Assembly (NCBI GenBank): GCA_024686575.1
Contig: GCA_024686575.1_4863.1
Length of the DNA stretch: 64,000 bases
Direction: 5' to 3' (one strand)
Source: a phage
In this document: piece after piece, positions 10,679 through 59,683 of the stretch
Layout: each line of letters begins with the position of its first letter
How positions within the stretch are numbered: position 1 is the stretch's first letter
The notes under the pieces: generated by a model
Database searches by the model: none
Seen by the model: only the letters and a program-made list of their open reading frames with translations
Told to the model about the DNA's origin: nothing
Translations under genes and position numbers: made by a program

Positions 10679-12355
10679 TTAGTACAACACTGGTGCAGTT
10701 TTCTCACCATTGCTCAGAAGCAAGTAAGTGTGCTGCGGCAGCTGCATCAATACAATTGCATGTGGCACGTTTTCCTGTACTGCTTCGTAGATAGACACAA
10801 CCGGGTCTGCGGTATTGCCCAGAGACGCTACCGTAACTACGTCGTGTTTATCAACAGAATGGTACATGCCTGGAATCACGATGGTGAACTGGCTCTGAAT
10901 CAGATTAACCACCTTGCCAGAATCGCTCAGCTTGATAGTCAGTTTGCGCAGAGAGTTTGCTACCATCAGGAACAGGTCACGGAACCAGTCTTCATATTCA
11001 CTTACGCCGTTGTCGCCAGCGGTTGCTGTGAACAGATCTTTTACGAAGAAATCAATATCGCTGATTTTCCGTTCGAAATCGATAGCTTTGAACTTCGGCA
11101 CATCTTTACCACGCTTAGTGCCCAGCGACAGCGCGTTGTGTACCAGGAAAGTGATATTCGCCAGGTACGCATTAGCAAAGCGAGAAATTTCACTGATAAC
11201 CACTTCTGCTTCGCTGCTGTTCGCAATCGCATATTCGTGCAGTTCTTTCGTGTTCTTACGCAGTTCATCGATCGTGCGTTTCACCTTAGCCATGATAGTT
11301 TCAACATCTTCTACCAACGCCAAGTTGTCGAGATCGGATTTCAGTGCGTCGTGCTTAGCAACGAATTGTTTCATGCGTTCGCACATGTCAGTGTTAACAC
11401 CGACCAGATACGCGCGATAGCTATCCCGTGCACGCACAATCAGGTCAGCCCCGTCGTAGAAAACAACCTCTTCATTACCGTTAAAGATATCTTGCAACGG
11501 TGTAGCCCAATCACGCGTTTCCGCGTAAACAGATTGCTTAATGCGACTGTTAGCTTCCTTCGCTGGAATCGACATTTTAAGCTCGGGGGTTTTCAGCTCG
11601 TGAAGTGCGTAGTCTTCCATCAAATCAATCTCCTGCAGAATGTTGTTAATTGGGCCATTGGTAGTGTCCTTCTCGGTTTCTTCTGTTGCGCCGAGTGGGG
11701 AAAGCACTGGGTTATTAACTGTAGCATTAGACACCGGCATTGGTTGTACAGGCACCTGTGCTGGTTCAGGCTGGGGCTGTTGTGCTGTGGCTGGGACTAC
11801 TTGCGCCGGTTGTGGGTTCAGGATAGGATCACTAACCAGGTTAAGACCTGCACCGCCAGCAATCACGGTTAGTGCCGCATCCGTGTTACCAATCTTAACA
11901 CCACCGGATGGCGCAGAAGACATGGTCAAGCCATCAGTAACACGCACACCGCCAGAACTGTTACCGCCCAGTAACCCGCCTGCGTTGCTACCACCACCTA
12001 AACCACCACTGCCACCCAAACCGCCGGACTGCTGAGAACGAATTTCGGCAAGAATCTTACCGACTTGTTCCCAAGCATTAACCAGTTTGGTGTGACGATC
12101 GTCGTTATACGCGTCGCCCGCGTTATGCACCTGCTGATAGGCAGCTGCTTTATACGCGTCGACCGCATATGCGATAACCTGTGCTTCACTACCCCCTTTG
12201 GATGCTGCCCATGCCGCAACATACGTCGCAATCTTTAACGCCTGATCTGGCGGAATGCTACGACTACGCATCACGTTATTCAACTGCGACAGTACCGCGT
12301 CCTGATCGAGGTGTTTAACGATGACGTTTTTGATTTGTTCAACAGTAATGCTCAT
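10679..12355 (-). CDS. hypothetical protein with central Gly-rich and Pro/Gln-rich linker
   Basis: 558 aa; AAGGAG Shine-Dalgarno; internal low-complexity stretch GGLGGSGGLGGGSNAGGLLGG followed by PQPAQVVPATAQQPQPEPAQVPVQP; terminator downstream. Confidence 0.7.
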   Translation of the reverse strand: MSITVEQIKNVIVKHLDQDAVLSQLNNVMRSRSIPPDQALKIATYVAAWAASKGGSEAQVIAYAVDAYKAAAYQQVHNAGDAYNDDRHTKLVNAWEQVGKILAEIRSQQSGGLGGSGGLGGGSNAGGLLGGNSSGGVRVTDGLTMSSAPSGGVKIGNTDAALTVIAGGAGLNLVSDPILNPQPAQVVPATAQQPQPEPAQVPVQPMPVSNATVNNPVLSPLGATEETEKDTTNGPINNILQEIDLMEDYALHELKTPELKMSIPAKEANSRIKQSVYAETRDWATPLQDIFNGNEEVVFYDGADLIVRARDSYRAYLVGVNTDMCERMKQFVAKHDALKSDLDNLALVEDVETIMAKVKRTIDELRKNTKELHEYAIANSSEAEVVISEISRFANAYLANITFLVHNALSLGTKRGKDVPKFKAIDFERKISDIDFFVKDLFTATAGDNGVSEYEDWFRDLFLMVANSLRKLTIKLSDSGKVVNLIQSQFTIVIPGMYHSVDKHDVVTVASLGNTADPVVSIYEAVQENVPHAIVLMQLPQHTYLLLSNGEKTAPVLY

Positions 12356-12386
12356 TGTAAATAATACTCCTTAAGAGATGTAATAA

Positions 12387-14165
12387 TTAGCGGCCGATTT
12401 TAGCAATGTCTTCTTCGGTCGGTCTGATGTACGGGTCCAGTTTAGGATTCCGCATCATTACCAAACTTGGGTTGGTCTTCATGTACGGGTTGAGGATGTT
12501 TGCCTTAAACGGTGCCGACTTAGGAATATAGTAGACGTTACCGCATTCCAGATGCGACGCGGATGCGTGCTTAGTACGGTCGTTCAAGTTAACGGTCTTG
12601 CCTCCTTTCTTCGAACGCTTAGCATCGGTTTCGGTTTGACCGATGGCGTGCGTAGACACTGCCAATACCATTGATTCTGTAGAGGCATTGAAGAAACTGA
12701 TACCGCCGTTGCTCGTAATGGTGCGCATCACCAGATTGAGCACGATCTGTTTGTTCAGTGCGTCTCGAATAGACTTCGCCGCTGTCTCTGGAGTCCGATG
12801 TTCCAACTGCCCCAGCTTCCAACGTATTTTCGAGATCGTTGTGGTAAAGCCACGTTGACCCAACAGTAGGTAATCGGTTACCGTGAGACGTTTTCCGTAC
12901 ATAGACGGAATATCATCTTGCTTGGTAAGTCGAGTGCGTACCATCAGCTGCGTGGTATACCAGAGGAAATCAAACATATCCAAATCATCAGGGATGGACG
13001 GATCGTTTGCCATCAGCTCACCACGGAAGGTGCTGTTGACATAGCGTTCACATTCCTGGAAGTGGCTGTCCATACTGCGACTCAGTTCGATATCCGAAGG
13101 CTTCAGTCCGCGAATACTGCGGCCCAACACTTCACGCCAAGACGCTGCAGAGTTGAGGTTTGCAATATCTTCGTCCATTGCCATTTCATTAATCTGTGTA
13201 AACAGCCCCGGTAATGTTGGCGCACGACCGTTCTTACTGTTCTGTTTACCTGCGTAGTAGTGCGCTGCTTTGAAGAATGCGGCAGTCGCTACCAGCAACA
13301 GATGTTCGTTTTGATCCCAACGCCCTGCATCGGTGTTAGGCATATCTTCACGTTTAACCAACAGCACGTACTGGATGGTCTTCGCGAGTTGTGGCTCACC
13401 GGATTGAATCACCACATACTTCGTTAAGTCCACATCACGTACTTTAATCGCTGGCCAAATCGCCACATCAACGCCCGCATAACGCTTCACGGCTTGTTTA
13501 AAGCCATAACGCCCAAAGAGCCAATACATCAGTGGCTTCTCATCTGTGTCGTGTCCAATCTGTCCAGTGGAGACAAACAGATTCGATGTACCCGGCAAGA
13601 ACAGCTGCTCAGGGCGACCATTCACCAGAATCTTCGTTGGTTTCTTACAGAACTTGATAGACACCTTGCGAGTGAAGTCAAAGTTAATAAAGATACCGCC
13701 GTGCTCACGACATATACCAGGTTGATGGATTACAGGTGCTACGTGGTACGTTGTACCATAGTAGTTCATTAAGCCGCCACGACGAATAAACGGCAGGCTC
13801 ATTGGTCGTTGCACCGGGCGAGGATCACCTGGAACTCGGAACGAGGCCATTACCATATACGTGTCAGTGGATGAGATGTTAATAATTGACCGGCCACGAT
13901 TATTTCGTGAATTGTTATCCGACTTCGATAACTTAAAGATAAAAGCTTCAAACGGCGACATTTGGCGACAACCTAATACCGTTAACCCTTCTGGTAATTT
14001 CGGGTTATCGATTTCATCATACGTCAACTCACGACGTAGAATGGTTGCCACACGATCATGTATCCCATCTTTAGCTTGTGTGTACCCAACTCCTTCTGCA
14101 ATTGCACGATTAAAAGGCACTATTTCGCCTGCCTCTTTAATCTTCCTAATCGCATCTTTAAACAC
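12387..14165 (-). CDS. hypothetical protein
   Basis: 592 aa ORF; no recognisable motif by eye. Confidence 0.7.
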   Translation of the reverse strand: MFKDAIRKIKEAGEIVPFNRAIAEGVGYTQAKDGIHDRVATILRRELTYDEIDNPKLPEGLTVLGCRQMSPFEAFIFKLSKSDNNSRNNRGRSIINISSTDTYMVMASFRVPGDPRPVQRPMSLPFIRRGGLMNYYGTTYHVAPVIHQPGICREHGGIFINFDFTRKVSIKFCKKPTKILVNGRPEQLFLPGTSNLFVSTGQIGHDTDEKPLMYWLFGRYGFKQAVKRYAGVDVAIWPAIKVRDVDLTKYVVIQSGEPQLAKTIQYVLLVKREDMPNTDAGRWDQNEHLLLVATAAFFKAAHYYAGKQNSKNGRAPTLPGLFTQINEMAMDEDIANLNSAASWREVLGRSIRGLKPSDIELSRSMDSHFQECERYVNSTFRGELMANDPSIPDDLDMFDFLWYTTQLMVRTRLTKQDDIPSMYGKRLTVTDYLLLGQRGFTTTISKIRWKLGQLEHRTPETAAKSIRDALNKQIVLNLVMRTITSNGGISFFNASTESMVLAVSTHAIGQTETDAKRSKKGGKTVNLNDRTKHASASHLECGNVYYIPKSAPFKANILNPYMKTNPSLVMMRNPKLDPYIRPTEEDIAKIGR

Positions 14166-18972: not shown

Positions 18973-20535
18973 ATGAATAGTAAAATGATGTTGATAACCG
19001 CCTTAGCCGCACTGTATACAGAATCTATGCTGACGGACCCTAGCAAGGATCATGATGTCATAAGAAAAGTTCTGATGCAGATCAAGCTTCCGGAATATGC
19101 GGAAGATGGCGAAGAGCGCTTTGCACTCATCGAGATCAAGGACATTATCACATCTATCATAGACGGCGGCATGGAATACGACCACGCGAGCGTTATGAAG
19201 CGCTTGAAGCTGGCCACCACTCAAGTACGTCCTCTATACGATACGATTACCAAATTCCTCGAAGACGATTTGCCCGAGGAAGAAGACAAACGTACCGAGC
19301 ATCTTAATCGACAACTGTCTCAATATTATTTCCAATTACGTCAATGTTTACAGAGCGTCGAACTCAAAACAAAAATGGGTCGCGCGTTCGGAGCATTGAA
19401 TGGAACTGAGACACGTGTTGATCTGAACACCGCAGTGCTCGAACTCAAAGAGGCGTTATCTACGTTCGGTGAACGCTCTCATAATAAGATTCCATCATTG
19501 GTCGGTGAGCTGGTTACAGATAATCGTGCTCCGTTTGTTAAAGTGTTCGACTCGATTAACAAGAAAGCTGCAGGTAATGGTTTGCAGACGGGCTGGAAAG
19601 CCATTAACCAAATGCTCGGTTGTAACAAAGGGATTACCGAAGAACTGTGGCTAATGCCAGCGTTACCTTTTAACTGTAAGTCTTTGTTCAGTCTCTTGCT
19701 GAGCCTATCGATTCCTATCTTCAACACGCCTGAGAAAGTAATGGCGGATGTGAAGGGCACACTGCAACCAATTATTCTTGACTTGAGTTTAGAAAACGAA
19801 CTCGACGTTAACTTAGCTTACGGCTATCAAGCTCTGTACGGTCATTTTGAAGGACAAGTTCCACAGATGACCATTTCACAGGATGCAACCGCTGAAGAGA
19901 AGTTAGCACACACAACAGCAATGTCTGATTACCTCTGTGGTAAGATTCGCGCAAACGGTTGGGACTACGTTTTCCAAAAGCACACCAACTCTGATTTTAA
20001 AGTGCACTACATCAACGACCTTATTCTCGACTTACGTCGTCGCGGTTATCATGTTGTTGGCATTCGCGCAGACTACTTAGGCACAATCAGCAAAGCAGGA
20101 CACGGCAACGGTATTGCCGGGAGTGATATCAAAGAAATTTATCGTATTGCTCGTAACATTCAAGTGGTGCGCAACCGTGGGTTCTTAATTGCCCCACACC
20201 AGATTTCCCCAGAAGGTAAGCGCTTAAAAGCGTTAGACCCGGTAGGCTTCTGTAAGAACTTACCTGGTCGTGGTCTTTACGATAGTTGTTCGAGCCTTGA
20301 TAACGAGGCCGATGGTGAAATGTATTTTAACAAGCGTGTGGTCAACGGCCATAGCTTCTTAGAAGTTCAACGCGGTAAACACCGCACCATTATCGATACT
20401 AAAGAATCTTATCACTACACAGTGATACCTTTCCAGGATGTAGGCATCCTGCCTTGGGATTGTGATAAAGAAGAAACCGTAACAGCGTCGTCTATCAACT
20501 TCTTCACCGGTGGAATGGGTGATGATTTGTTCTAA
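18973..20535 (+). CDS. hypothetical protein
   Basis: 520 aa ORF; AAGGA Shine-Dalgarno 7 nt before ATG; hairpin after stop. Confidence 0.7.
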   Translation: MNSKMMLITALAALYTESMLTDPSKDHDVIRKVLMQIKLPEYAEDGEERFALIEIKDIITSIIDGGMEYDHASVMKRLKLATTQVRPLYDTITKFLEDDLPEEEDKRTEHLNRQLSQYYFQLRQCLQSVELKTKMGRAFGALNGTETRVDLNTAVLELKEALSTFGERSHNKIPSLVGELVTDNRAPFVKVFDSINKKAAGNGLQTGWKAINQMLGCNKGITEELWLMPALPFNCKSLFSLLLSLSIPIFNTPEKVMADVKGTLQPIILDLSLENELDVNLAYGYQALYGHFEGQVPQMTISQDATAEEKLAHTTAMSDYLCGKIRANGWDYVFQKHTNSDFKVHYINDLILDLRRRGYHVVGIRADYLGTISKAGHGNGIAGSDIKEIYRIARNIQVVRNRGFLIAPHQISPEGKRLKALDPVGFCKNLPGRGLYDSCSSLDNEADGEMYFNKRVVNGHSFLEVQRGKHRTIIDTKESYHYTVIPFQDVGILPWDCDKEETVTASSINFFTGGMGDDLF

Positions 20536-43227: not shown

Positions 43228-44580
43228 TTAGGAAGAAGTCGCCTGACTAAGCTTCGCAGAAGCCACACGCAGGTCATTAGAAAGATAGCGCTCCATCGTA
43301 CGCTGATAATCCACCCCAGCACGCTCACGGCGACCGCCAGGGGTCAGCGTTTTCATGATGAAGCTAAAGACGTTGTCTTTGTCTTTCACGGTTTTCAGTA
43401 GTTCGTCGATAGACGCAATGCCCTGCAGAATACGTTTACGATGTTCGTTCGCTTCTTTCGTGGTGCTGCCTTTTAAGGTGTTCAGCTCCTCCACTAAGTT
43501 ACGGCGCATCGTCTCAAAACGTTCCTGCGGCGGATCGTAGATGGTGTTGCGTGGGTCGTTCACAATCAGGCCGAACGCGACTGAGATAGTCGTGAAGAAC
43601 AGACCAACTGGATTAGTCGAAGCCACAATCAGCAGCGAAACGTTAAGCATCTCCAGCATCAGATGCACACCGTAGTTCATGTACGACGCGTTCCGGCAGA
43701 GATAGAATTGGGACGTTTCGATTTTGTACAAGGCTGACGCCAGGTACGGGGCTGCACCAAAGCGAGCTGCGAAGTCATCTGCAGCACGTTCCCAGGTACG
43801 GTTAGCGAACCCTTCCGAACCGGTAACAAACGGACGCTCAAGCAGAATGTCTGTCACCAGATGCATGTAGATGTTCTCTTTAGACATCTCTTTGCAGATA
43901 GTTTCCGGCTGATTCACTTTGGTGTTCAGCATACGTTCAACGTCTTTTACGACTTTTAAACGCACTGTCGGGTCTTCTGTTTGCATCATGCGGTTCGCTG
44001 CAGCATCCGCAATCAGGTTCGTTACCACCGTACGCATCAAGGTACGGAAATAGTAATAGACGTGACCGACTTCATGTAGAATAATCGCCGCGACTTCTAA
44101 ATCCGTTAACTCGATACCTGTCAGTAGTTTCGGGGTCAGCCAAAGTGGGGACGGCACCTTGCTGAGTTCGCCTGAAAGCTTCGCATTTTTATCGTCGAAC
44201 TCGCCGTTCAGCTCGTTCTCTTTTAAGAACTTACTGTAGACATCCAGGTCGGTGTTACCCTGCACCATCTTGCGTTGCAGGTCGGCGATGATTGGGTTGT
44301 TCGCGTCGAGCTTCGGTGGCTCCACACCCGCAAACACAACGTCCGCCACACCTAAGTCGGACCCGTTACGAGGCAGGACTGTAATACCGTTGTTGTCAAA
44401 GACCCAGGCAGCAATACCAGAACTCTGATAACCCGCTGGCGAGAAGTCGCCCGCATCACGGAACTTACGTACCACTTCCGCCAAAGAGGCGAGTTTCTTT
44501 TTATCTTGGAATCCGATGGACTCCGAGGCCACGGCTTTCGCGTCGGCCAACGAGGTTATGTGCTTTTGCCAGTGTCCCAT
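43228..44580 (-). CDS. putative membrane-associated zinc metallopeptidase (HExxH, M48/M56-like)
   Basis: 450 aa; AAIILHEVGHVYY contains HExxH; downstream TWERAADDF resembles the E-x-x-A-D third-ligand motif; hydrophobic stretch LLIVASTNPVGLFFTTISVAFGLIV. Confidence 0.65.
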   Translation of the reverse strand: MGHWQKHITSLADAKAVASESIGFQDKKKLASLAEVVRKFRDAGDFSPAGYQSSGIAAWVFDNNGITVLPRNGSDLGVADVVFAGVEPPKLDANNPIIADLQRKMVQGNTDLDVYSKFLKENELNGEFDDKNAKLSGELSKVPSPLWLTPKLLTGIELTDLEVAAIILHEVGHVYYYFRTLMRTVVTNLIADAAANRMMQTEDPTVRLKVVKDVERMLNTKVNQPETICKEMSKENIYMHLVTDILLERPFVTGSEGFANRTWERAADDFAARFGAAPYLASALYKIETSQFYLCRNASYMNYGVHLMLEMLNVSLLIVASTNPVGLFFTTISVAFGLIVNDPRNTIYDPPQERFETMRRNLVEELNTLKGSTTKEANEHRKRILQGIASIDELLKTVKDKDNVFSFIMKTLTPGGRRERAGVDYQRTMERYLSNDLRVASAKLSQATSS

Positions 44581-44650: not shown

Positions 44651-46435
44651 ATGGAAATCAATACCTATTACGCACCCGAGGATGTCATCGCTAAAGAGTG
44701 CAAGCACGTCGCTTATGCGACGGACGAAGAAAAAGAAAATGACTTTGTCCTCATCAAAGAGGTCATCCATACTAAGGATGGCAGGCTTATCCCGCGCTTG
44801 GTAATGCGTGAGAATTTAAAGCGTCCGGTGTACGTTACCCGTGAAGAATATCGTAACCACCAGGAGAAAAAGGAGTTCGAAGAAAAAGGAAAATGTCAAG
44901 AACTCTGGACTACTGATGCGCAGATGGCGAAGACGTTGCAGATGGGTTTAGGTGCACGTTTCCCTGACCCGAAAAAGAACCTGAGGCGTGTTTGTACTAG
45001 CCCGTACGTTTATTGGGCCGACTTACCGATTACCAGCTGGATTAAACAGAAATACTTAAAGCGTTGGCCAAACAACATCAGTCCTAACCGTCTTTGTGTA
45101 TACGACGTAGAGACCAACGAAATGGACGGCACGAAGGAACCGTGGATCGTGTCATTTATCTTAGACGACGAAATCCATTTCTTTGGTGCTAAGAACTACA
45201 TGGACCGCATCGGTAAAAACGCGGAAGAAGTCATTCTCAAAAAAGCGCAGGAACTCTTAAGCAAAATCGAATTCGATGAGAAAGACAAAAAGACTGGCGA
45301 AAAGGTGACAAAGACCAAAGACATTATCAGTGGTTATAAAATCTTCACCTATACCTGCGCTACAGCAGGGCAGTGCATCGTCAGGATGTTCGAAGAAATT
45401 CATCCGCGTCTTCCTGATTTGCTGGTCGCATGGAACCACCAGTTCGATATTTCACGCATGTTAGAAACCTTGCAGAAAGAAGGCATCGATCCACTGGGCG
45501 TCTTTAACCATCCGGATGTGCCGGAGAAATACCGTCGTCTGTGGTTTAAAGAAGACCAGGCGAACAAAAAGACAGAATCCAAGTCACTCACCAAAGCACC
45601 GTCACAACAGTGGCACGTACTCTACTGTACTGCGTCTTTCTACTGTGTGGATGCCATGGTGTTATTCCGTTCGTTGCGTGTCCACGAAGGCCAACGTCCT
45701 TCGTACAAGTTATCTGCCATACTGTACACCGAACTCGGTTTACACAAACTCGACATTCCTGGCCTGCCGTATGAAGATAACCTGCAATGGCACATAAAAG
45801 CACAACGGGACTACCCTGCCGAATACGCCGTATACAACATGATGGATAACTTGTTAATTGTGTTGTTGGATAAGAAGACGAACGACTTGTCTTCAGCAAT
45901 ATCCATTCTGGCAGGTTTCTCGATGTACGATATCTTCCCGTCGCTACCAAAACGTATCTGTGTGGCCTTTACCTATTATCTGTATGACAAAGGATACGTC
46001 ATCGGCTCCGTAGGATCTGCAATGCGTAACGATTACGATGAAGAGGTTATCGGTACAGACGGTTGGATTGTTACCCTGACAGCATGTATGAATGCTGAGA
46101 ACGGTCTGAATAACATTCTGGAGGAGATTGACGAATATTACTCTGCGTTCCGTGGTCAAACTGCGGATGCGGACTTAACCCAGGCCTACCCTTCGGCCAC
46201 AAACATGATGAACCAGTCTCGTGAGACCACACTCATTGAACTGCTGTCCATCAATGGGGTTAGTGAAGAGATTCGACGTCGCACGGGCGTCAACTTAACT
46301 GCTGGGCGAGTTAATGCCATGGAAATAGCGACAGACTTCTTCTGCTTACCGGACAAAGACACTGTCCTGTCTACGTTCTTACGTAAGCAAGGGGAAGTAG
46401 TGACAGAGCCTATGGAGTACATCTGCGGGTTCTAA
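44651..46435 (+). CDS. family-B DNA polymerase N-terminal fragment (3-5 exonuclease domain plus motif A)
   Basis: 594 aa; Exo I-like VYDVETNE, Exo II-like VAWNHQFD, Exo III-like YCVDAM, and polymerase motif A-like DLTQAYPS; motifs B and C (KxxxNSxYG, YGDTDS) not found, so the rest of the polymerase is encoded elsewhere. Confidence 0.65.
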   Translation: MEINTYYAPEDVIAKECKHVAYATDEEKENDFVLIKEVIHTKDGRLIPRLVMRENLKRPVYVTREEYRNHQEKKEFEEKGKCQELWTTDAQMAKTLQMGLGARFPDPKKNLRRVCTSPYVYWADLPITSWIKQKYLKRWPNNISPNRLCVYDVETNEMDGTKEPWIVSFILDDEIHFFGAKNYMDRIGKNAEEVILKKAQELLSKIEFDEKDKKTGEKVTKTKDIISGYKIFTYTCATAGQCIVRMFEEIHPRLPDLLVAWNHQFDISRMLETLQKEGIDPLGVFNHPDVPEKYRRLWFKEDQANKKTESKSLTKAPSQQWHVLYCTASFYCVDAMVLFRSLRVHEGQRPSYKLSAILYTELGLHKLDIPGLPYEDNLQWHIKAQRDYPAEYAVYNMMDNLLIVLLDKKTNDLSSAISILAGFSMYDIFPSLPKRICVAFTYYLYDKGYVIGSVGSAMRNDYDEEVIGTDGWIVTLTACMNAENGLNNILEEIDEYYSAFRGQTADADLTQAYPSATNMMNQSRETTLIELLSINGVSEEIRRRTGVNLTAGRVNAMEIATDFFCLPDKDTVLSTFLRKQGEVVTEPMEYICGF

Positions 46436-46490
46436 AACAAAAAAAGAAAGGCCTCTCTACCCTAGGGTAGAGAGGTACTTTTATTTAGCC
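46436..46490. terminator. bidirectional rho-independent terminator
   Basis: Palindromic stem CCTCTCTACCC/GGGTAGAGAGG flanked by A-run and T-run, between convergent genes. Confidence 0.8.
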
Positions 46491-46985
46491 GCCAAAGGCG
46501 TGCATAACCAGCGAACGGAGGTCCGGGTCGTTCAAGCGACGGGCCAGACGGTCAACATCGTTGGTATCACGGAAACGACCTTTATCGGCGCAGCGTGCGT
46601 AACGAATCAGCATGTTAATAAAGATAACGAAGACTTCACGCTCGTCACGATTCGGGAAGTTCTCACTGATACGGTTATTAGCAGCCGGTGCGTAGAAAAT
46701 ACCGTTACGGTGCTTATTAGCCGCTTCTACAAAGGCGTAGAAACCATCCAGGAAGGCCTGACCGCGCAGTTTAAACAGCTCACGGAAAGAGTGATGCAGC
46801 TTATTATACGCATCTTTCTCAGCCTGGGTACCAGATGCTTTACGTGGGCCGGCGTTGTTACCTGCTTCATCGAGCATCGTGGTGATCAGTTTAACACGAT
46901 ATTGGTCGTCGTTGCTGTAAGAAGCGCTATCACGGACCACGCCTTCTGTACGCGGGTCAAGGGTAGTAGTGTCTTTCTTAGTCAT
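46485..46985 (-). CDS. hypothetical protein
   Basis: Track ORF 46485-47060; internal ATG at 46985 has an AAGGA Shine-Dalgarno and avoids 62-nt overlap with the upstream gene. Confidence 0.55.
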   Translation of the reverse strand: MTKKDTTTLDPRTEGVVRDSASYSNDDQYRVKLITTMLDEAGNNAGPRKASGTQAEKDAYNKLHHSFRELFKLRGQAFLDGFYAFVEAANKHRNGIFYAPAANNRISENFPNRDEREVFVIFINMLIRYARCADKGRFRDTNDVDRLARRLNDPDLRSLVMHAFGG

Positions 46986-46998
46986 GAGGAAACAATCC

Positions 46999-48297
46999 TT
47001 AGGTGATGTGGAATTTAGGGATGTACTCTTTAACCACGGTTTCACGACCGTGCATCGCACCCATTGCAGTGGTCATAACGTTCGAGAAGCCGGATGAGAT
47101 ATCCGCAGCGATTGCCCGTGGCTCTTCTGCTTTGTGTGCAGAGGCGCACGCCGCACAACAGTCTACGTGACCTTGCTGACATAAGATGGGTCGGCGGAGT
47201 CGAACAACTTTACCGAATTGCGTTTTCAAATACTCTTCGGTGAGTTGGGTAACTTTACCGTTAATCATCGCGTTCATGCCAACATAACGCTTGTAGTTAT
47301 ACTGGTTAATTACAAGTGCATGAGTCAGTTTTGTCCCGCAATCTCCAGGCACGATTTTGTGGTTCTGGAAGATCATCTGGATGATACGTACCTGCTCACC
47401 ACCCTTAGCGGTTTCTGCACCACGCATGAAGGAACCTTCACGAGTGTCATTGAACTTCTCTACCAGGTACTTCATCCCGGTCTGATCAACTTCCATCAGA
47501 CTCGTTGGGATTAAGGTAAAATCTGCACCTTCTTTAAAAGCGGTCTGAATACCATACATCAGCATCAGCTTACGGCGACGCATACGCGCTTTAGGCGAGC
47601 TGTAGAACTCAACGGACTGGTCGCCACTCAACCACTCTTTATCAAGTTCGTCGAGAGCTTTTTCAATCATAACGATAACCGCAGGGTTATCCAGTTCGTC
47701 TTTGTGCTTCAACAGCAACGCATCACGTACCTTATACGCGTCAGGATGCGTTGTAAGGCTTCTAATTGTTCCTGTTGGGGCAATCCCACGACACAACGGA
47801 GCAAGCTCGTGTAGACCCCCTACAAAGCGTCCTATCATGTATGGCCGAATCGCGTCTTCGTTGTCTGGATCGGTGTCATCGTATTCCACACATCGTTCGT
47901 ACATCTCCTTACGGTAGGCTAGCGGGTCACGGGACTCTGCCAGATACGGGAGACGGGTACCGAATGCGTAATAGATAGCAATCCAGTTAAAGACATAGCG
48001 ACCCACGGTAGTCGGAATGGGACCAGCTAGACCTGGGTACATCTCAGGACGCAATTCAAACTGCTCTTCCGGCACGAACAGCTCTTCATCTTTTTTGCAC
48101 CCTTCAATCGGCACCCATTTAATTTCTTCGTTTTCCCAGTAGTGGGGCAAGCCGTCAATGTAGTTCAGGTCGTATTGCTCAGGTGGCTCACCTTTTTCAT
48201 TAAAGATTGCCACGTTGAAAACCGCAATACGCCACACCAGTCTACGCCAAGCTTCTGCTTTACACGCAGCGACCAGATAATCAATCTTGTTCATCAT
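46999..48297 (-). CDS. hypothetical protein with C-terminal cysteine cluster
   Basis: 432 aa ORF; C-terminal HVDCCAACASAH cluster; no confident family assignment. Confidence 0.7.
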   Translation of the reverse strand: MMNKIDYLVAACKAEAWRRLVWRIAVFNVAIFNEKGEPPEQYDLNYIDGLPHYWENEEIKWVPIEGCKKDEELFVPEEQFELRPEMYPGLAGPIPTTVGRYVFNWIAIYYAFGTRLPYLAESRDPLAYRKEMYERCVEYDDTDPDNEDAIRPYMIGRFVGGLHELAPLCRGIAPTGTIRSLTTHPDAYKVRDALLLKHKDELDNPAVIVMIEKALDELDKEWLSGDQSVEFYSSPKARMRRRKLMLMYGIQTAFKEGADFTLIPTSLMEVDQTGMKYLVEKFNDTREGSFMRGAETAKGGEQVRIIQMIFQNHKIVPGDCGTKLTHALVINQYNYKRYVGMNAMINGKVTQLTEEYLKTQFGKVVRLRRPILCQQGHVDCCAACASAHKAEEPRAIAADISSGFSNVMTTAMGAMHGRETVVKEYIPKFHIT

Positions 48298-52278: not shown

Positions 52279-52662
52279 TTAACTTGCATCGTGTGGAACA
52301 GTCACCCAATCGTGCCATTTTTCAGAGTAAAGACGATAAGCCATCTTTGGATTCTGATCGACACTACCGGCCGGGTTCTCATTCCACAACACGTACGTAT
52401 ATAACTCGTACGACGAAGTGTTACGGATACTTGACGTGCGGGTGACGTAGTACGTCAACCCGCGTTGGTTAAGGAACAGGCCGCTGTAATGTTCAGTGAC
52501 CATGTAGTAGTGAAACGCCTGGTTGATAGTGGCGTCGGTACAGAGTTTCTTAGCGACGTCTTCTACGCCGGGATACGCCTTTAGAATGTTTTCGAGAAAA
52601 CTTGCTAAAGTCATTCCGATGTAGGGTGGCAGCGGCTCTGCTGGACGCGGCGGAGTGAGCAT
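52279..52662 (-). CDS. hypothetical protein
   Basis: 127 aa ORF with AAGGAA Shine-Dalgarno before ATG at 52662; overlaps the 3-prime end of the helicase ORF by about 113 nt in another frame. Confidence 0.5.
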   Translation of the reverse strand: MLTPPRPAEPLPPYIGMTLASFLENILKAYPGVEDVAKKLCTDATINQAFHYYMVTEHYSGLFLNQRGLTYYVTRTSSIRNTSSYELYTYVLWNENPAGSVDQNPKMAYRLYSEKWHDWVTVPHDAS

Positions 52663-55294
52663 GTGATTTCCTTACAACGTAGGGGGATGTCGCAATACGG
52701 AACGACAATACGACATCCTTGAGTGATTTCTGACGGGCATTCAGGTAATTGCAATGCTTCGGTACGTTATACGCATGGAATAACCACACCGTTGGGTCTA
52801 TTTCACCCCATTCGTTGTGGAGAATCTTACGTGGACGACCGGCCATCTGTTCGTTCAGTTGCTGGTCTTCTACCGGGGTTGAGATGTACATGTGTACCAA
52901 CCCAGGTTTATCGACCGCAGTCCCCGCTTTCCCCGGTGTGGAGATAGAGAAGTCTGCTTGGATAAAGTCGTCATACGAATCGCCTGCATTATATTTCGCC
53001 ACCATCAGTGGATGGAATACAGGGTCACGCGATAACTTATCTTTCACATACTCGGTAAAGAACTCACACATCGCTACCGTAGCAAAGAGTATCAAACATT
53101 TTTGGCCAGGCTGATACCGTTTAAGAAACGATTTCTCAACCACATCCCAGATCATGTTTGCGTATTCTAAATGCAAGTTCTCTTTAATCAGCTTCCCTTC
53201 GAAGAGCTTGTGGTTATACGGCGTCATCTTCGACGCCCACCACGCAAACTTCTTATCATCCAGTCGATAGTACAACGCCTTCACGTCAACCACCGGAATG
53301 ATTGGAATACTGATTCGGTACTCCATTGGGAAACGTTCTAAATACCGCTCCGCGATAAAGGCTTTACTGCTACCCGGCTTAAGAGTTGCAGACATCTCTA
53401 TCGATGCCGGCGGATTCAACATTATACCAGCCATGTAAACGAGGTGAAAATGCTCGTGCACCTCATCCATCGCCACCAGACCCACACCCAGAACATCATA
53501 AAACGTATCCAGGTCCACAGGGTTAGTCGCAGCAGTGTTAATGTACTCCTTCAGGAAACGCTGTAGAGAGACCGTGGGGAGGATTATTACCTTAATACCA
53601 CGACTATCTAGCTCTCCCGACTTACCCATCTCCAGTGCGTCGTAAATCGCCTGTACGCCTGTACAAACTAACACCTCGTCACGAAGTATACGAAGTCCTG
53701 TTTCATCATCACAGACGTCAAACAGCCATTTGGGAACGTACGACGGACGGTGAATCAATGCGGTACGGGTTCCCCGTTTAACCATCGACTTCATACAGGT
53801 CTTGGTGTTGTGCGTAACAATCCACTGTCCCAGAACGTACAGATGTTCATCGTTGTCGACAGTAATGCACGAACCATGACTCTTCCCAACATACACGATA
53901 GACTTAACACGGAGTTTCAGTGTATCGTTGTATTGACCGTTGTCGCGACACAGCGCTTTCTTACGCGGGAGGTTGAACAGCATTGAAGGTGTCTTGTGCC
54001 TAATGAACACCATATAAGCCAATTTACCTTCTCTACGTTCTCCTTTGTAAGTAAAGAACGGACGTTTTGTGGATATAGTTGCAATACCACCTAACGATCT
54101 CACCAACTCCTGGACGCCCAACGCCAGCGACTCGCTGGTGCTACAATACGACGGCTGCCCTCCATCTTTATTCACGGTTCCGTCCGTGTCCATTAAACCG
54201 CGCAGCAGCTCCCAGCGTTGCTCAATCGAGCCTTCAAAATATTCATCCGGAATATATTTTCTATCAGACCCTTTCCCTAGAAGACCGTGGTCCTGCAAAT
54301 AGAGCGGCCAGGACATCGGCACTTCACGTCTGCGACGACGCATTCTATACTGATAACGATCGGCGGGAACCATCTCGGTATCGTCAGGTAAATACTTCCT
54401 CACCAGCTCGACAGTTTCTGGATCGGCTGATGTGAAGCCTACCGCGCCATTTTCACAGGCGTGGCCGTTTCCCAAGAATGCCCCCATGAGATACGGATGT
54501 ATTTTAAAGCACTTTTCACTTGTCTCTTCCGGTTCAGGTAACGGAATGTAGACTCGCGGGTTCGGCATTGCAATCAGTCGCTGAATTTCTTCCGTACTTC
54601 TTACCTGCCACCGAGTGTTTGGTGTGGTATTGACGTAGTAGGATTGCCAGAGATGCTCTTTACCGACCACAGTCTTACGTCCGTCAGCAAAAGTTATCTC
54701 GTAAAAATCCCAATCTTCATGCGGGTACACCGCCGTCACATTCGTCGGCTTCCCATCCCTACCGATTACCACATCCCCGACTTCTAGCTCTCCATGTAAT
54801 TTCCACCCACCAGGAATCCTTACACGCTGATCCCATCTACAGACCTTTCCTCTTCCTGTTTGTATCGCGAAAACCGTTTGTGAACGCGATGGATCTGTTG
54901 CGGCGGCTACGACTTCATTCTGATAATAGAAACGCGACTCTGGGTCTGTTTCTTCCATCTTGAATCCGTAATTATCAAACGTGCACTTATAAGGTTCTGC
55001 ACGTTCAGGATGGTGCTCTGTTAGCTTGTACTGAAAAGCGTATTCAATTGCTGCTCGTTGGAGGATATGTTTAATCTTCTCAGCGAACACTTTATGGAAA
55101 ATGAACGTCCTTAAAGACGGAATGTGAGCGTAGTACGCGTCACCGCGTTCCGTAGTTATTCGTCCATGTTGCTTGCCCATCTTTGGGGCGTGCATATTCT
55201 CTTCGGCCCACGCGAGTATGGCCCTTTCAGCCTGGCGGATAGGGACTTCAACCCGTACCCCCATACTCGTGTAAGTCATTTGAATTTCTACCAT
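52550..55294 (-). CDS. DExH-box (SF2-type) helicase/ATPase interrupted by an intein
   Basis: 914 aa from ATG at 55294 (GAGG Shine-Dalgarno; track N-terminal extension rejected); Walker-A-like AIQTGRGKV, motif II AMDEVHEH, motif III SAT; about 345 aa intein inserted after GRGKV. Confidence 0.75.
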   Translation of the reverse strand: MVEIQMTYTSMGVRVEVPIRQAERAILAWAEENMHAPKMGKQHGRITTERGDAYYAHIPSLRTFIFHKVFAEKIKHILQRAAIEYAFQYKLTEHHPERAEPYKCTFDNYGFKMEETDPESRFYYQNEVVAAATDPSRSQTVFAIQTGRGKVCRWDQRVRIPGGWKLHGELEVGDVVIGRDGKPTNVTAVYPHEDWDFYEITFADGRKTVVGKEHLWQSYYVNTTPNTRWQVRSTEEIQRLIAMPNPRVYIPLPEPEETSEKCFKIHPYLMGAFLGNGHACENGAVGFTSADPETVELVRKYLPDDTEMVPADRYQYRMRRRRREVPMSWPLYLQDHGLLGKGSDRKYIPDEYFEGSIEQRWELLRGLMDTDGTVNKDGGQPSYCSTSESLALGVQELVRSLGGIATISTKRPFFTYKGERREGKLAYMVFIRHKTPSMLFNLPRKKALCRDNGQYNDTLKLRVKSIVYVGKSHGSCITVDNDEHLYVLGQWIVTHNTKTCMKSMVKRGTRTALIHRPSYVPKWLFDVCDDETGLRILRDEVLVCTGVQAIYDALEMGKSGELDSRGIKVIILPTVSLQRFLKEYINTAATNPVDLDTFYDVLGVGLVAMDEVHEHFHLVYMAGIMLNPPASIEMSATLKPGSSKAFIAERYLERFPMEYRISIPIIPVVDVKALYYRLDDKKFAWWASKMTPYNHKLFEGKLIKENLHLEYANMIWDVVEKSFLKRYQPGQKCLILFATVAMCEFFTEYVKDKLSRDPVFHPLMVAKYNAGDSYDDFIQADFSISTPGKAGTAVDKPGLVHMYISTPVEDQQLNEQMAGRPRKILHNEWGEIDPTVWLFHAYNVPKHCNYLNARQKSLKDVVLSFRIATSPYVVRKSHAHSAASSRAAATLHRNDFSKFSRKHSKGVSRRRRRR
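53807..54841 (-). mobile_element. intein with LAGLIDADG homing-endonuclease domain
   Basis: Starts with Cys after the P-loop and ends VLGQWIVTHN followed by Thr; LAGLIDADG-like motifs YLMGAFLGNGHA and LLRGLMDTDGTV; in frame within the helicase ORF. Confidence 0.7.
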
Positions 55295-55340: not shown

Positions 55341-57446
55341 TTACAACTCAATTACCACAGCGGCTCCTAGGTCATCGTACAACGATGCCGGGATTTTGTA
55401 CTCGGTATAAAAACCAACGCGATCGATATTCCCCTGCTGTCCTTCAAACAACAACATCGGAATTGCCGAGCGCAAACTAATGAGCGTGTTGTGATCGACA
55501 AACCGTTTCCCTGTAGCGTTAGTAGAATCCTCACTGTCAAATCCTACTGCCGGGAACGGATTGGTTGGCGACTCTACACGAGATATCGCCAACATAATCG
55601 CAATGTGCGTCATCGGTATACCACTCAGCTTACGCTGGATATACTTAAACGTGTCCATCAACGCATAAGTACACTGTTTCTCTGTAGCACCACCCATTTC
55701 AACCAACGTCACCGGTTTCACACGACCTTGTTTCTTGTTCAGCTTCACAGTCGAGGCTGTGTTGATGATTTCCACAATGTCTTCGTTCTTATCGGCAGCA
55801 ATCGAACGGAGCTTGGTTTCTAAGCCGGCTACGAACTCCGCCATCGATTCAGAACGGTTGGTGTAGACCAGGACCGGGTGTTTCGGGTTCCATCCTTTTA
55901 AGGGGATTTCTACCGTCTTCTTCTCGATACGAATGTTCGCTCGTTGTTTCAAGAAGTAGTGCAGGAACGGTTTAGAGAAGTTCCCACAAACACCCATTCG
56001 CACATCGATAGAATCCGCAGCGATTATCTGCCCATCTTCTAAACGACGTTGGAAAGTTAAGTCGGTGATTTCTGGTAATGCCGTTTCATCAATTGCATCG
56101 AGATCTTCATGATACGCAATCTGGCTCAGCTCCGAATAAACTTTGTCGGTAACAACCAACTCGTATTCTGACCAATTCCCACGCTGTGGTTTTGGCAGCA
56201 AGCACAACCCTTTCAGAGAGTTATGTTTGTATTCGGTCATATACTCACGCATACGTGGGGTGAGTACCAGGTTGAGCAGATAACGCAAGAAGTCAAGGTG
56301 CTTGGTAGAGAGAATTCCCTGTGTACCCTTTTCCGAGATGGACGTGGATGCCAGGTGACCTGGTGACGTACCTTCAGAGAGGTTATAAATCAAATCCCCC
56401 ATACAGGTCGCACAGATGGACTGATTCGCCATCTCTTTACAGGTCATGGCACTACGGAAGACCAGCGGTTTGCCAACCAGGTCTGCGTATCCGCCTTTCT
56501 CAAATCGCAACCACGGACCATTATCGCCTTCTAAACGATAACGCATCCCCACCATCGCTTTATAGGCACGCTCATCCAGCTGCGTATCCTTAAACGTGTA
56601 GCGGTGTGCGTGTGTTGTACCGCAGTCGTCGTACGTGAAATACATCAGTACGTTTGCTGCCAGCTGCAGTTTACGTGAGGCGTATTCTGCTTCGGCAATC
56701 TTGTCAGTGTTGTACAGGTGGGAACGTGAAGTTGCACCAGATTCTTTCAAACGCGAAATAACCGAATGCATTCCGGTAAAGAAGCCTTCCCACACCTGAT
56801 TGGTGTATACACGTGAGTCAATTTCTGACGTTTTGCCGCGCACGAACGCTTGCAGTACCTGGTTCATCTTCACGGTACCGTCCAGTACCGACATTACGAC
56901 TGGGTTATACCGCAGCGCAGGGTCTTTGAAGATTTTCTCGATAAGCTTATACGCTTCTTCAACCATATCCTGACCATCTTCATCGTAGCCAGTAGGATAC
57001 TGCACTTCCCACTGACGGATGAGTTCGAAGTTCGGGTGGTCGTAGATCTCCATCATCGTATCAAAGTCGATTGTCGTACAATAGGACAGCAAGTTCTTCA
57101 CTGTCATGTTGAACGCATCGGCGTAGACATGTTGACTCAGGATATAACGCGTTTCAGCAAGGTCGACACCTGCTTTACGGGCCAGTACCGCTGCTTCCGA
57201 CATAAAGTCCAGATGCAGGTCATCTGTTGCTACCTGACCTGGACGATACGCCATGGTCGATGGAGTGGGCACCTGCGGATACAGACGCGACACACCCCAA
57301 TACGGCCAGCTGAGTTTGATGTGGCGACTAGACATTTCCAACGACTTACCATCGTCGAAAGTCACGTAATAACGCCCGCGTAGTTTCCACACCTGATCAG
57401 AGTTAAGCATACGCAAATCACGTACGTGTACAGAACGACCCGCCAT
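55341..57446 (-). CDS. multisubunit RNA polymerase beta-prime-like subunit, C-terminal part
   Basis: 701 aa; ASTSISEKGTQGILSTKH matches the beta-prime trigger-loop signature AAQSIGEPGTQLTMRTFH; preceded by a Cys cluster (C-x8-C-x2-C) as in the C-terminal Zn site of beta-prime. Confidence 0.7.
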   Translation of the reverse strand: MAGRSVHVRDLRMLNSDQVWKLRGRYYVTFDDGKSLEMSSRHIKLSWPYWGVSRLYPQVPTPSTMAYRPGQVATDDLHLDFMSEAAVLARKAGVDLAETRYILSQHVYADAFNMTVKNLLSYCTTIDFDTMMEIYDHPNFELIRQWEVQYPTGYDEDGQDMVEEAYKLIEKIFKDPALRYNPVVMSVLDGTVKMNQVLQAFVRGKTSEIDSRVYTNQVWEGFFTGMHSVISRLKESGATSRSHLYNTDKIAEAEYASRKLQLAANVLMYFTYDDCGTTHAHRYTFKDTQLDERAYKAMVGMRYRLEGDNGPWLRFEKGGYADLVGKPLVFRSAMTCKEMANQSICATCMGDLIYNLSEGTSPGHLASTSISEKGTQGILSTKHLDFLRYLLNLVLTPRMREYMTEYKHNSLKGLCLLPKPQRGNWSEYELVVTDKVYSELSQIAYHEDLDAIDETALPEITDLTFQRRLEDGQIIAADSIDVRMGVCGNFSKPFLHYFLKQRANIRIEKKTVEIPLKGWNPKHPVLVYTNRSESMAEFVAGLETKLRSIAADKNEDIVEIINTASTVKLNKKQGRVKPVTLVEMGGATEKQCTYALMDTFKYIQRKLSGIPMTHIAIMLAISRVESPTNPFPAVGFDSEDSTNATGKRFVDHNTLISLRSAIPMLLFEGQQGNIDRVGFYTEYKIPASLYDDLGAAVVIEL

Positions 57447-59683
57447 TATTTATCCTCCCGAATTGGACGCACTAATTCAAAACCTTCACAGCGATGGATG
57501 TTACGTATCATCCTGTCAATCTGCGAATCACCCATTGGCAGTTTCTTACGATCGACCAGCACCCCTGGATTGGTTGGTGTTGGCGAGTTATACAGCCCCG
57601 TTACGATCGCACGGTGTACCGCAGGGTTATTAGCGCGGTCATGAGTTTCGGGGAAGTTGCCCGGACCAAAGCCGTCGGTAAGACGCTGCTCGGAAGGACC
57701 ACCCCACTTCAACCCTTTCAGGTTAATCGGATATGAACCACGTCCTTGGTTGGATGCATCAATACAACCCAAATAGTTCGTGTACATCGACGAGATACTG
57801 GAGAACTCACGACCGGTTTTATCCAGGCGCAGAGTCTCTACCATGCCGACGTAAAACTGGTTCTTCGTCCACTCTTTCTCACCCTGATAGTTAGTAATCA
57901 GTAGCTTAGACTTGCGTGGTGCATACTCGCCTAGAGCACGGCAGATTTCTACCTGGGTAGCATTCAATTCGTGGGGAAGCCAGATACGAATCGTGAAGTC
58001 GTAAATCTCTTTAAAGAGTTCCAGACGTGACCCAGTATCCGGGTGACTGGCATTGAGATAGAATGTCCAGCGTGGGTTATAGCGATCGATATAGTCCATC
58101 AGGATTTCCCAGGCTTCATCAACCTGGTTGGCGGCAAGTAAAGGTTTCAACCGCATCTTCAACTGCTCGGATGCAGCAGACCAATACATGTGGAACAGCG
58201 CAGCATAAGTCGAACGACGAATTACGGCGTTCATGGAACGAATGACATGCACACGTTCTCCGAACTCGTTAATCGGCATTTCTTCATCAGGCCGCACTGC
58301 GCCCACGATACCTTTTGTACCTGAACGGTCGGTGATTTTCGATGAGACGGTAACTGGGATTGGATAACGTACCACGATGCGTATCGTGTAACTACCAATT
58401 GGGTCCCAGAGACCACGCTGAACCGGCTGCGCCAGTTTGTTTAACACGTTCTTATCAGCAGAACGGTTATACTCGCCTTTACGCATGGCTTCATCGTATT
58501 CACGACCAATCTCTTCACGGAAGTCGTTATAGACTTCATACGTCTCAGAACAGAACGCCTTGTCAAGAATCTCAAACGCTTTCGGTGACCAGACGATATT
58601 CTTGTCCTTGGACATCGCAAAATAGAACCGTACGATATCATTGTAAAAACGTTTCAAAGCGTTCGCGTAGTGATCTAACTCGCGTTTGTTCTCTTCGGTA
58701 CATGCGATATTGTTAACACCACGATCGCATTTGGTTTCGTCCCGCCATACCTGAATATCAACGACACGAGAACCGGTACGTTCCATCTTTTCAAAGTCGC
58801 CAGCCAGTCGCGCTTTGTAATGCTCAGGGTCGGCATCAACATACTCACAACGGTCGAAGTGCGGAGAGACATGTTGTGTTTCACCTACGTGCGAGTCAAT
58901 GGCTGCCCATAGCTTATCGAAACGGCGCGCGGCAATAACCAACCCATCATCACGAATTGCCTGTCCTTTATTGGGCAGGTACTGTGGTCGACGAACGCCA
59001 TCAATACCCGTTGTCCCATACGTATCAAGCAGGTACTCGTCGTCGCGCAAGGTAAAGTCGATTGCACGCAAACCATAAGCGTGCATCGCTTTCGCTGCAG
59101 TTTCGGAGATGGTGTACGAGTCCTCGATAATGTCCGGGTGCGACATCGTCACGGTGTGCAGGTTGACCCCATCGACAAACTCACCGTCTTTCTGTGCCGG
59201 CAGCACGGTAAGCATTTCATCTTTTTCCAGGTGCTGCGTCTGCCCGCGCAGCAACGCCTGAAGTTTCCCAGTAGCCTCTTTCTTAGACGAGAAAATGTTA
59301 TCGTGGTTGGTGTAATACTTAATATCGATTACATCAATCATCACTTTGCGCTGGTTGGTTAAATCTGCGCGCGTGAAGAAGATAACATGTTGGAGCGGTT
59401 CGTGATCCCCTTCACGACCATAGCGTGCAAAAACAGCTGCACGAGTAACACCTTCTTTGGTTGTGTAACTGCACACGGTACCACTGTCTTCCACGATATC
59501 GTTAAAACAATAATCGTGGTAGTTCACATCAGCGCCGGTAAAATGGATAGTCGGATCTGGATTGTCCAGTGGTACCGCCGACTTCATATGTCCACCCACC
59601 ATTGAGGCACGTGCCCCAGATACGCCAGTGATATTCACCTCACGGTCAGCAACGCTTGACATGAGTTCGACTGGTGTTTTCAT
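57446..59683 (-). CDS. multisubunit RNA polymerase beta-like subunit, C-terminal part
   Basis: 745 aa; ITDRSGTKGIVGAVRPDEEMP matches the beta signature [20 protein letters not shown]; C-terminal GGPSEQRLTDGFG resembles GGQRFGEMEVWA; stop overlaps the start of the beta-prime-like gene. Confidence 0.7.
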   Translation of the reverse strand: MKTPVELMSSVADREVNITGVSGARASMVGGHMKSAVPLDNPDPTIHFTGADVNYHDYCFNDIVEDSGTVCSYTTKEGVTRAAVFARYGREGDHEPLQHVIFFTRADLTNQRKVMIDVIDIKYYTNHDNIFSSKKEATGKLQALLRGQTQHLEKDEMLTVLPAQKDGEFVDGVNLHTVTMSHPDIIEDSYTISETAAKAMHAYGLRAIDFTLRDDEYLLDTYGTTGIDGVRRPQYLPNKGQAIRDDGLVIAARRFDKLWAAIDSHVGETQHVSPHFDRCEYVDADPEHYKARLAGDFEKMERTGSRVVDIQVWRDETKCDRGVNNIACTEENKRELDHYANALKRFYNDIVRFYFAMSKDKNIVWSPKAFEILDKAFCSETYEVYNDFREEIGREYDEAMRKGEYNRSADKNVLNKLAQPVQRGLWDPIGSYTIRIVVRYPIPVTVSSKITDRSGTKGIVGAVRPDEEMPINEFGERVHVIRSMNAVIRRSTYAALFHMYWSAASEQLKMRLKPLLAANQVDEAWEILMDYIDRYNPRWTFYLNASHPDTGSRLELFKEIYDFTIRIWLPHELNATQVEICRALGEYAPRKSKLLITNYQGEKEWTKNQFYVGMVETLRLDKTGREFSSISSMYTNYLGCIDASNQGRGSYPINLKGLKWGGPSEQRLTDGFGPGNFPETHDRANNPAVHRAIVTGLYNSPTPTNPGVLVDRKKLPMGDSQIDRMIRNIHRCEGFELVRPIREDK

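Follow-up and report, generated by a model that had tools for sequence, protein, structure and literature searches.

The split DNA polymerase considered here was reportedly first described in phage OBP, by Cornelissen et al. in 2012. Family-B DNA polymerases (PolB) made from two genes, whose products must combine, are also found in archaea, namely PolB1 of Methanothermobacter and the PolB of Nanoarchaeum, the halves of which are rejoined by a split intein. In phage PhiKZ, gp82 and gp50 form the split B-family polymerase of the chimalliviruses, which was resolved by cryo-electron microscopy (cryo-EM) at 2.1 Å (Basu et al., bioRxiv 2026, PMC13648687). Here, a 64,000-nucleotide stretch of phage DNA (contig GCA_024686575.1_4863.1 of GenBank assembly GCA_024686575.1, hereafter the window) was analysed, in which the open reading frame (ORF) at 44651-46435 on the plus strand almost certainly encodes DNAP-N, one of the two obligatory chains of the replicative PolB in PhiKZ-like (chimallivirus) jumbo phages. 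The archaeal polymerases belong to a different lineage from this system and are split at a different site. The split polymerase itself is already known, both for the window protein (as gp44 of phage SPN3US) and, at atomic resolution, for its PhiKZ orthologue.

The two PhiKZ chains form a stable 1:1 heterodimer, and the split between them falls within the palm domain. DNAP-N carries motif A (D562), and DNAP-C carries motif C (D426) and supplies the remaining palm, the fingers and the thumb (PMC13648687). Residues 589-638 of DNAP-N fold together with residues 1-98 and 221-419 of DNAP-C to form a palm insertion. The wild-type complex mostly degrades primer and the exonuclease-dead D151A/E153A mutant extends it, whilst addition of D562A to the exonuclease-dead mutant yields a complex that neither polymerises nor degrades. 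A third protein, Rhc (gp155), combines RNase H and clamp-like parts and increases synthesis (PMC13648687). Rhc was sought in the window with an approximate query, E. coli RnhA, and the best match had E=0.21, although this is a crude test.

Earlier descriptions of these phages assigned the activities in various ways. Kazlauskas and Venclovas (2011, PMC3201878) reported a divergent polymerase of PhiKZ-like phages with the exonuclease in a separate ORF, and put both active-site aspartates on the polymerase chain (D229 and D398 in phage EL). Iyer et al. (2021, PMC7824862), whose example was SPN3US gp18, described the exonuclease as standing alone. A 'split subunit DNA polymerase', the first case of which was that of phage OBP, is mentioned by Thomas et al. 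2016 and Ali et al. 2017 (PMC5105663, PMC5694885), and SPN3US gp18 and gp44 were explicitly named as a split DNA polymerase (PMC5694885).

Relationship to SPN3US and PhiKZ

The ORF begins with ATG and encodes 594 amino acids. Its DNA is 99.1-99.2% identical to that of the Salmonella phages SaP7, SEGD1, JN03 and SPN3US, and the protein is 100% identical to SPN3US gp44 (YP_009153338.1), which carries the RefSeq annotation 'DNA polymerase'. The names gp44 and gp18 follow the numbering of the SPN3US literature for YP_009153338.1 and YP_009153312.1, respectively. A 13.8-kb stretch around the ORF aligns end to end with SPN3US at 99.0% identity in reverse orientation, so that near the ORF a window position w corresponds to approximately 87659-w in SPN3US, and window position 64000 to SPN3US 24697. 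The window therefore comes from a Seoulvirus of the SPN3US type, a jumbo phage related to PhiKZ. The protein and the gene neighbourhood are thus the same as in SPN3US, with 99% DNA identity, whereas the SPN3US genome differs from the window elsewhere, for example in having no in-frame insertion in the helicase gene (see below).

The residues of PhiKZ were mapped by aligning the window protein with gp82 of a Phikzvirus phiKZ isolate (638 residues). The two proteins are colinear over 95% of their length at approximately 33% identity, have the same partner family, and share the same domain content, that is, an N-terminal domain, an exonuclease, a first palm segment with motif A and a C-terminal tail. 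The catalytic residues D151, E153, D251, D452 and D562 of PhiKZ correspond one-to-one with D152, E154, D266, D399 and D508. However, the window protein is shorter (594 against 638 residues) and lacks the 'little finger' insertion (PhiKZ residues 350-415), in agreement with the report that this insertion is confined to some Pseudomonas chimalliviruses (PMC13648687). It also has a short insertion of its own relative to gp82, at approximately residues 205-230.

Homology and predicted structure

The window protein matched PHROG 3011 'DNA polymerase' with E=4e-251, residues 4-586 covering profile positions 1-574 of 576, and this end-to-end match indicates that the ORF is a real gene. No Pfam family was found when the protein was scanned alone, even at E<=10; one homologue of DNAP-N (P0085) has a precomputed PF03104 hit. 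A search of solved structures with the single sequence returned a chance match only (granzyme M, E=2.7), and a profile was therefore required for a structure match. A search of 5.8 billion proteins yielded 94 DNAP-N homologues, nearly all of 550-640 residues, and 41 of them, with identity down to 22%, were used to build an alignment and profile. The profile matched RB69 gp43 in the PDB (E=1.7e-9) over three colinear stretches. Exo I 'FDIEV' and Exo II 'NVESFDIPY' lie in the first (RB69 91-231), Exo III 'YNIID' in the second (271-380) and motif A 'FDLTSLYPS' in the third (404-431). Alignment by hhalign against T4 gp43 gave a probability of 97%, with residues 231-529 placed on T4 183-429 and the match ending just past motif A.

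Structure prediction led to the same family. The AlphaFold2 model of the window protein has a mean predicted local distance difference test score (pLDDT) of 84.5, exceeding 90 over most of residues 11-460 and dropping to 40-70 from residue 460 to the C-terminus when the chain is modelled alone. A Foldseek search against the PDB placed RB69 gp43 in all of the top 20 positions (best E=2.4e-12, approximately 470 aligned columns), followed by Pol epsilon, T4 gp43 and archaeal PolB, the listed hits being B-family polymerases. The profile, hhalign and Foldseek matches to RB69 and T4 gp43 thus bear out the original prediction, which had read the ORF as an N-terminal fragment of a family-B polymerase, and profile analysis did not place the protein in an unrelated exonuclease family devoid of a palm segment.

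The window protein spans the region of RB69 and T4 gp43 from the N-terminal domain to just after motif A. The two agree in fold and in catalytic motifs from the N-terminal domain through the exonuclease into the beginning of the palm, DLTSLYPS of RB69 corresponding to DLTQAYPS. However, RB69 and T4 gp43 are single chains of approximately 900 residues, whereas the window chain stops approximately 85 residues past motif A. In this system a second gene encodes the remainder of the polymerase, including a large helical insertion in the palm.

Catalytic motifs

Exo I, Exo II and Exo III occur in this order and are conserved, each with the form expected of a DEDDy-type exonuclease (DxE, Nx2-3FD and Yx3D, respectively). 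Exo I (VYDVETNE, residues 150-157, 45098..45121 on the plus strand, as are the motifs that follow) aligns with RB69 'FDIEV' and with PhiKZ D151/E153. Exo II (VAWNHQFD, residues 259-266, 45425..45448) aligns with RB69 'GWNVESFDIPY', D266 being the counterpart of PhiKZ D251. Exo III is YNMMD (residues 395-399, 45833..45847), which aligns with 'YNIID' of RB69 and T4 and in which D399 corresponds to PhiKZ D452. All 41 homologues have D152, E154, W261, D266, Y395 and D399, and at least 90% have N262. Motif A (DADLTQAYPS, 46166..46195, with DLTQAYPS at residues 508-515) aligns with 'FDLTSLYPS' of RB69 and T4, and D508 with PhiKZ D562. Its residues D506, D508, Y513 and P514 are likewise invariant. 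This segment is the first palm strand, with the catalytic aspartate D508 and Y513.

The assignments made in the original prediction for Exo I, Exo II and motif A therefore stand. However, the sequence that it had taken for Exo III, YCVDAM (residues 331-336, 45641-45658), aligns with RB69 'LDYIDLY' at 271-277, and the true Exo III is YNMMD.

Motifs B (KxxxNSxYG) and C (YGDTDS) were not found in the ORF by either a regular-expression scan or the alignments, in agreement with the earlier statement that the ORF ends without them, and therefore the ORF alone is not a complete PolB. Motif A is followed by a C-terminal tail at approximately residues 535-594 (46253..46432, plus strand), positioned by pairwise alignment with gp82 of the PhiKZ species. 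By homology, a helical domain, the 'palm insertion', would be built from three segments and interlock with the partner chain, the tail being the first segment.

The partner subunit

It had been proposed that the C-terminal part of the polymerase must be encoded elsewhere. A closer inspection of SPN3US agrees with this, as its second 'DNA polymerase' gene, at 11544-13823 (+), encodes a protein of 759 residues (YP_009153312.1, gp18) that carries motifs B and C and corresponds to DNAP-C. The gene is 27 kb from that of gp44 and on the opposite strand. The protein is a full-length match to PF20286 'Divergent Family B DNA polymerase' (E=5e-284), with a weak match to PF00136 too. Motif B (K157..N160-N161..S164-G165), motif C (S418-D419-T420-D421-S422) and KxY (K497/Y499) are invariant in 35 homologues. 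The gp18-family profile aligns to Pol zeta over a segment from the pre-finger strands into motif B; when aligned by hhalign with the single sequence of T4 gp43, it matched the KKRY region alone and with low probability. A search of solved structures with the single gp18 sequence gave chance matches only. The AlphaFold2 model of gp18 (pLDDT 84.3) matches RB69 gp43 at E=1.5e-5 and has no hairpin at motif C. Both this and the low confidence of DNAP-N residues 460-594 fit a palm domain that needs both chains. By these alignments, the PolB homology of gp18 starts downstream of motif A. Apart from those of motif C, gp18 has a single invariant aspartate, D288, which is flanked by helices within a long helical insertion. 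Its place in the sequence, past motif B, is the wrong one for motif A, and D288 therefore cannot be motif A.

No gp18-like gene was found within the 64-kb window by tblastn (best E=0.56), and a regular-expression scan of the whole window for motifs B and C gave chance matches only. One of these, 'LMDTDG', falls in the LAGLIDADG insertion of the helicase gene. Synteny with SPN3US places the gp18 locus approximately 10 kb past the right end of the window.

Distribution of the two genes

In none of the 94 homologues was DNAP-N fused to DNAP-C, and no fusion was seen among the 120 DNAP-C homologues listed of 348. A profile search of 1.84 billion representative proteins (50% clustering) recovered 751 DNAP-N representatives with E<=1e-30, the best 150 of which range from 463 to 894 residues. 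The single long one, P0215 (894 residues), was considered as a fused polymerase and rejected, since the 330 additional residues make up a low-complexity acidic tail rather than a DNAP-C part. By tblastn, the DNAP-N gene was found in 310 phage records, with hosts that include Pseudomonas, Erwinia, Salmonella, Vibrio, Serratia, Aeromonas, Klebsiella, Ralstonia, Bacillus and others. The two-gene arrangement is therefore ancestral to the whole group.

Several records of the SPFM series (Salmonella phages, LR5359xx) hold frameshifted or fragmented genes for both polymerase subunits. Their matches are either 520-680 residues with only 3-11% query coverage or are split in several pieces. These are probably sequencing or assembly errors in the records and not biology.

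Proposed organisation of the polymerase

Taken together, these data point to a polymerase whose two chains share the work in the following way. DNAP-N would contribute the N-terminal domain, a complete 3'-5' proofreading exonuclease (D152, E154, D266, D399), motif A (D508, Y513) on the first strand of the palm, and the helical C-terminal tail. The fingers (motif B, K157), the thumb and what remains of the palm (motif C, D419/D421) would come from DNAP-C. The chains would pair non-covalently as a 1:1 heterodimer, without splicing, and the break would lie inside a lineage-specific helical palm insertion, pieces of which from both chains co-fold. With motif A on DNAP-N and motif C on DNAP-C, the polymerase active site would be composite, each chain providing one metal-binding aspartate. 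Residues 460-594 of DNAP-N would fold only with the partner, which the low AlphaFold2 confidence of the chain alone fits. The original prediction had seen in this locus a split replication enzyme of a jumbo phage, and the PhiKZ cryo-EM structure displays the same split (PMC13648687). The heterodimer, its structure and its activities were established for PhiKZ only; the 33% identity and the full-length colinearity suggest that they would hold for the window phage.

Several points weigh against this interpretation. Heterodimer formation in the window phage would be carried over from PhiKZ at 33% identity, and the missing little finger means that the window protein and PhiKZ gp82 are not identical in architecture. 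The partner gene lies outside the window, and its presence in the source genome is presumed from synteny with 99%-identical genomes. Moreover, the exonuclease has been described as standing alone (PMC3201878, PMC7824862), and the placement of both aspartates on the polymerase chain of EL conflicts with motif A being on DNAP-N. This last conflict is settled in favour of the composite site by the cryo-EM structure and by the invariant motif A.

Jumbo phages that form a nucleus are candidates for phage therapy, and a split PolB is one of their hallmarks. A composite site with one catalytic aspartate per chain is unusual among replicases. The value of the window is limited to annotation: the presence of motif A means that DNAP-N is not merely an exonuclease, and stand-alone descriptions understate its contribution. 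The labels in many database records ('hypothetical protein', 'T4-like DNA polymerase', 'DNA polymerase II') do not fit, and we propose 'DNA polymerase, N-terminal subunit (exonuclease + motif A)' instead.

Alternative interpretations

An extension of the two-chain polymerase is that DNAP-N has more than one function. Since the two halves are unlinked genes, 27 kb apart and on opposite strands in SPN3US, it is conceivable that DNAP-N differs from DNAP-C in timing or amount and has an extra role as a free exonuclease, alone or with another partner, in recombination or repair inside the phage nucleus. Alternatively, the Seoulvirus form, having no little finger, might use an accessory contact unlike that of PhiKZ. 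We regard such departures as unlikely. Free DNAP-N would be partly unfolded, to judge from the disorder of its 130 C-terminal residues in the AlphaFold2 model of the chain alone.

It is less likely still, and indeed highly improbable, that the protein is only a stand-alone 3'-5' exonuclease that acts beside a self-sufficient polymerase, its motif-A-like sequence being vestigial. The literature offers some grounds for such a view, as PMC3201878 separates the activities by chain, with both active-site aspartates on the EL polymerase chain, and PMC7824862 uses the term 'stand-alone protein'. The invariant D288 of gp18 might have been mistaken for motif A. However, D506, D508, Y513 and P514 are invariant down to 22% identity, the motif aligns colinearly with motif A of both RB69 and T4, and the PolB homology of gp18 starts past motif A, with D288 in the wrong order.

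Joining of the halves after translation by a split intein (protein trans-splicing) has next to no probability. Intein-split PolB is known in phages, MIJ3 being an example (PMC6892783), and the window does contain an intein-like in-frame LAGLIDADG insertion, in its helicase gene. However, Pfam scans found no intein, Hint or homing-endonuclease domain in either half of the polymerase, and the tail of DNAP-N and the N-terminus of DNAP-C are without the Cys/Ser-start, TxxH and HN-Cys/Ser/Thr signatures. The C-terminus of DNAP-N is, moreover, variable in both length and sequence across the family. In PhiKZ, gp82 and gp50 were purified and resolved as separate chains, with DNAP-N 589-638 and DNAP-C 1-98 both visible (PMC13648687).

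Similarly negligible is the chance that a once full-length polymerase gene appears truncated here, whether as a pseudogene or through an assembly or frameshift error, for which the frameshifted fragments in some SPFM-series records could be cited. A length of approximately 550-640 residues is kept in hundreds of independent genomes and metagenomes, the catalytic residues are invariant, and a terminator-like hairpin and a convergent gene come after the stop codon.

Gene neighbourhood

The DNAP-N gene (44651..46435, plus strand), encoding the N subunit of the split family-B DNA polymerase and orthologous to the genes for SPN3US gp44 and PhiKZ gp82, is the sole plus-strand gene within a run of minus-strand genes. 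Its flanks had been described as a terminator and convergent minus-strand genes. This is correct for the hairpin and for the downstream neighbour (46485-47060, minus strand), which is convergent across a gap of 49 bp, but the upstream neighbour (43228-44580, minus strand) is divergent, with a gap of 70 bp. The hairpin lies at 46451..46476 and can be read on both strands; a consensus scan and the sequence reveal a perfect 11-bp stem in a GC-rich palindrome with T-runs on each strand. From its position between convergent genes it is likely to be a bidirectional intrinsic terminator. It is the position alone that is suggestive, since the region contains 3 terminator-like sites against 2.4 expected from shuffled sequence, i.e. 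no excess.

The upstream neighbour bears the annotation 'putative virion structural protein 1'. Its match to Peptidase_M48 is below threshold (E=0.0034; 17.7 bits, the cut-off being 20.3), and the sequence HEVGH within it is a possible zinc-metalloprotease motif.

Other genes of the window

The gene at 52550-55294 (minus strand) encodes a superfamily 2 (SF2) 'DNA helicase' (SPN3US YP_009153330, 569 residues) with an in-frame insertion of approximately 345 residues at approximately 53750-54784. The insertion is missing from SPN3US and lies inside helicase motif I (QTGRGK/V-C...THN/TKT, the slashes marking its ends). A LAGLIDADG_3 domain (PF14528, E=1e-9) lies within it, and its last residues are His-Asn, with Thr next. 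In these features it resembles an intein that carries a homing endonuclease, although there is an extra Val ahead of the Cys and the placement of the N-terminal splice junction is approximate. The helicase sequence flanking the insertion is only 90-92% identical to SPN3US, compared with approximately 99% in other parts, a difference that would be expected if homing had brought about co-conversion. The same gene of JN03, SPLA3, SPLA5c, EC001 and Lh1B holds insertions that are related but have diverged (82-84% identity, with partial coverage).

A divergent DnaB-like replicative helicase (PF20307 divDNAB, E=1e-124) is encoded at 18973-20535 (plus strand), beside the major capsid gene. It is the helicase that accompanies this type of polymerase.

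The gene at 12387-14165 (minus strand) encodes 592 residues, is called 'polymerase' in SPN3US (PHROG 2943) and has no Pfam hit. Its product matches chain E of the PhiKZ non-virion RNA polymerase (PHIKZ123, PDB 7ogp) with E=3e-20, and is therefore a subunit of the non-virion RNA polymerase and not a DNA polymerase. A beta-type subunit of the split multisubunit RNA polymerase is encoded at 46999-48297 (minus strand; PHROG 2962, E=4e-175). The genes at 55341-57446 and 57446-59683 (both minus strand) are RNA polymerase beta subunit genes by SPN3US annotation, again of the split multisubunit enzyme. With these genes near that of the split DNA polymerase, the window has several replication and transcription enzymes in pieces.

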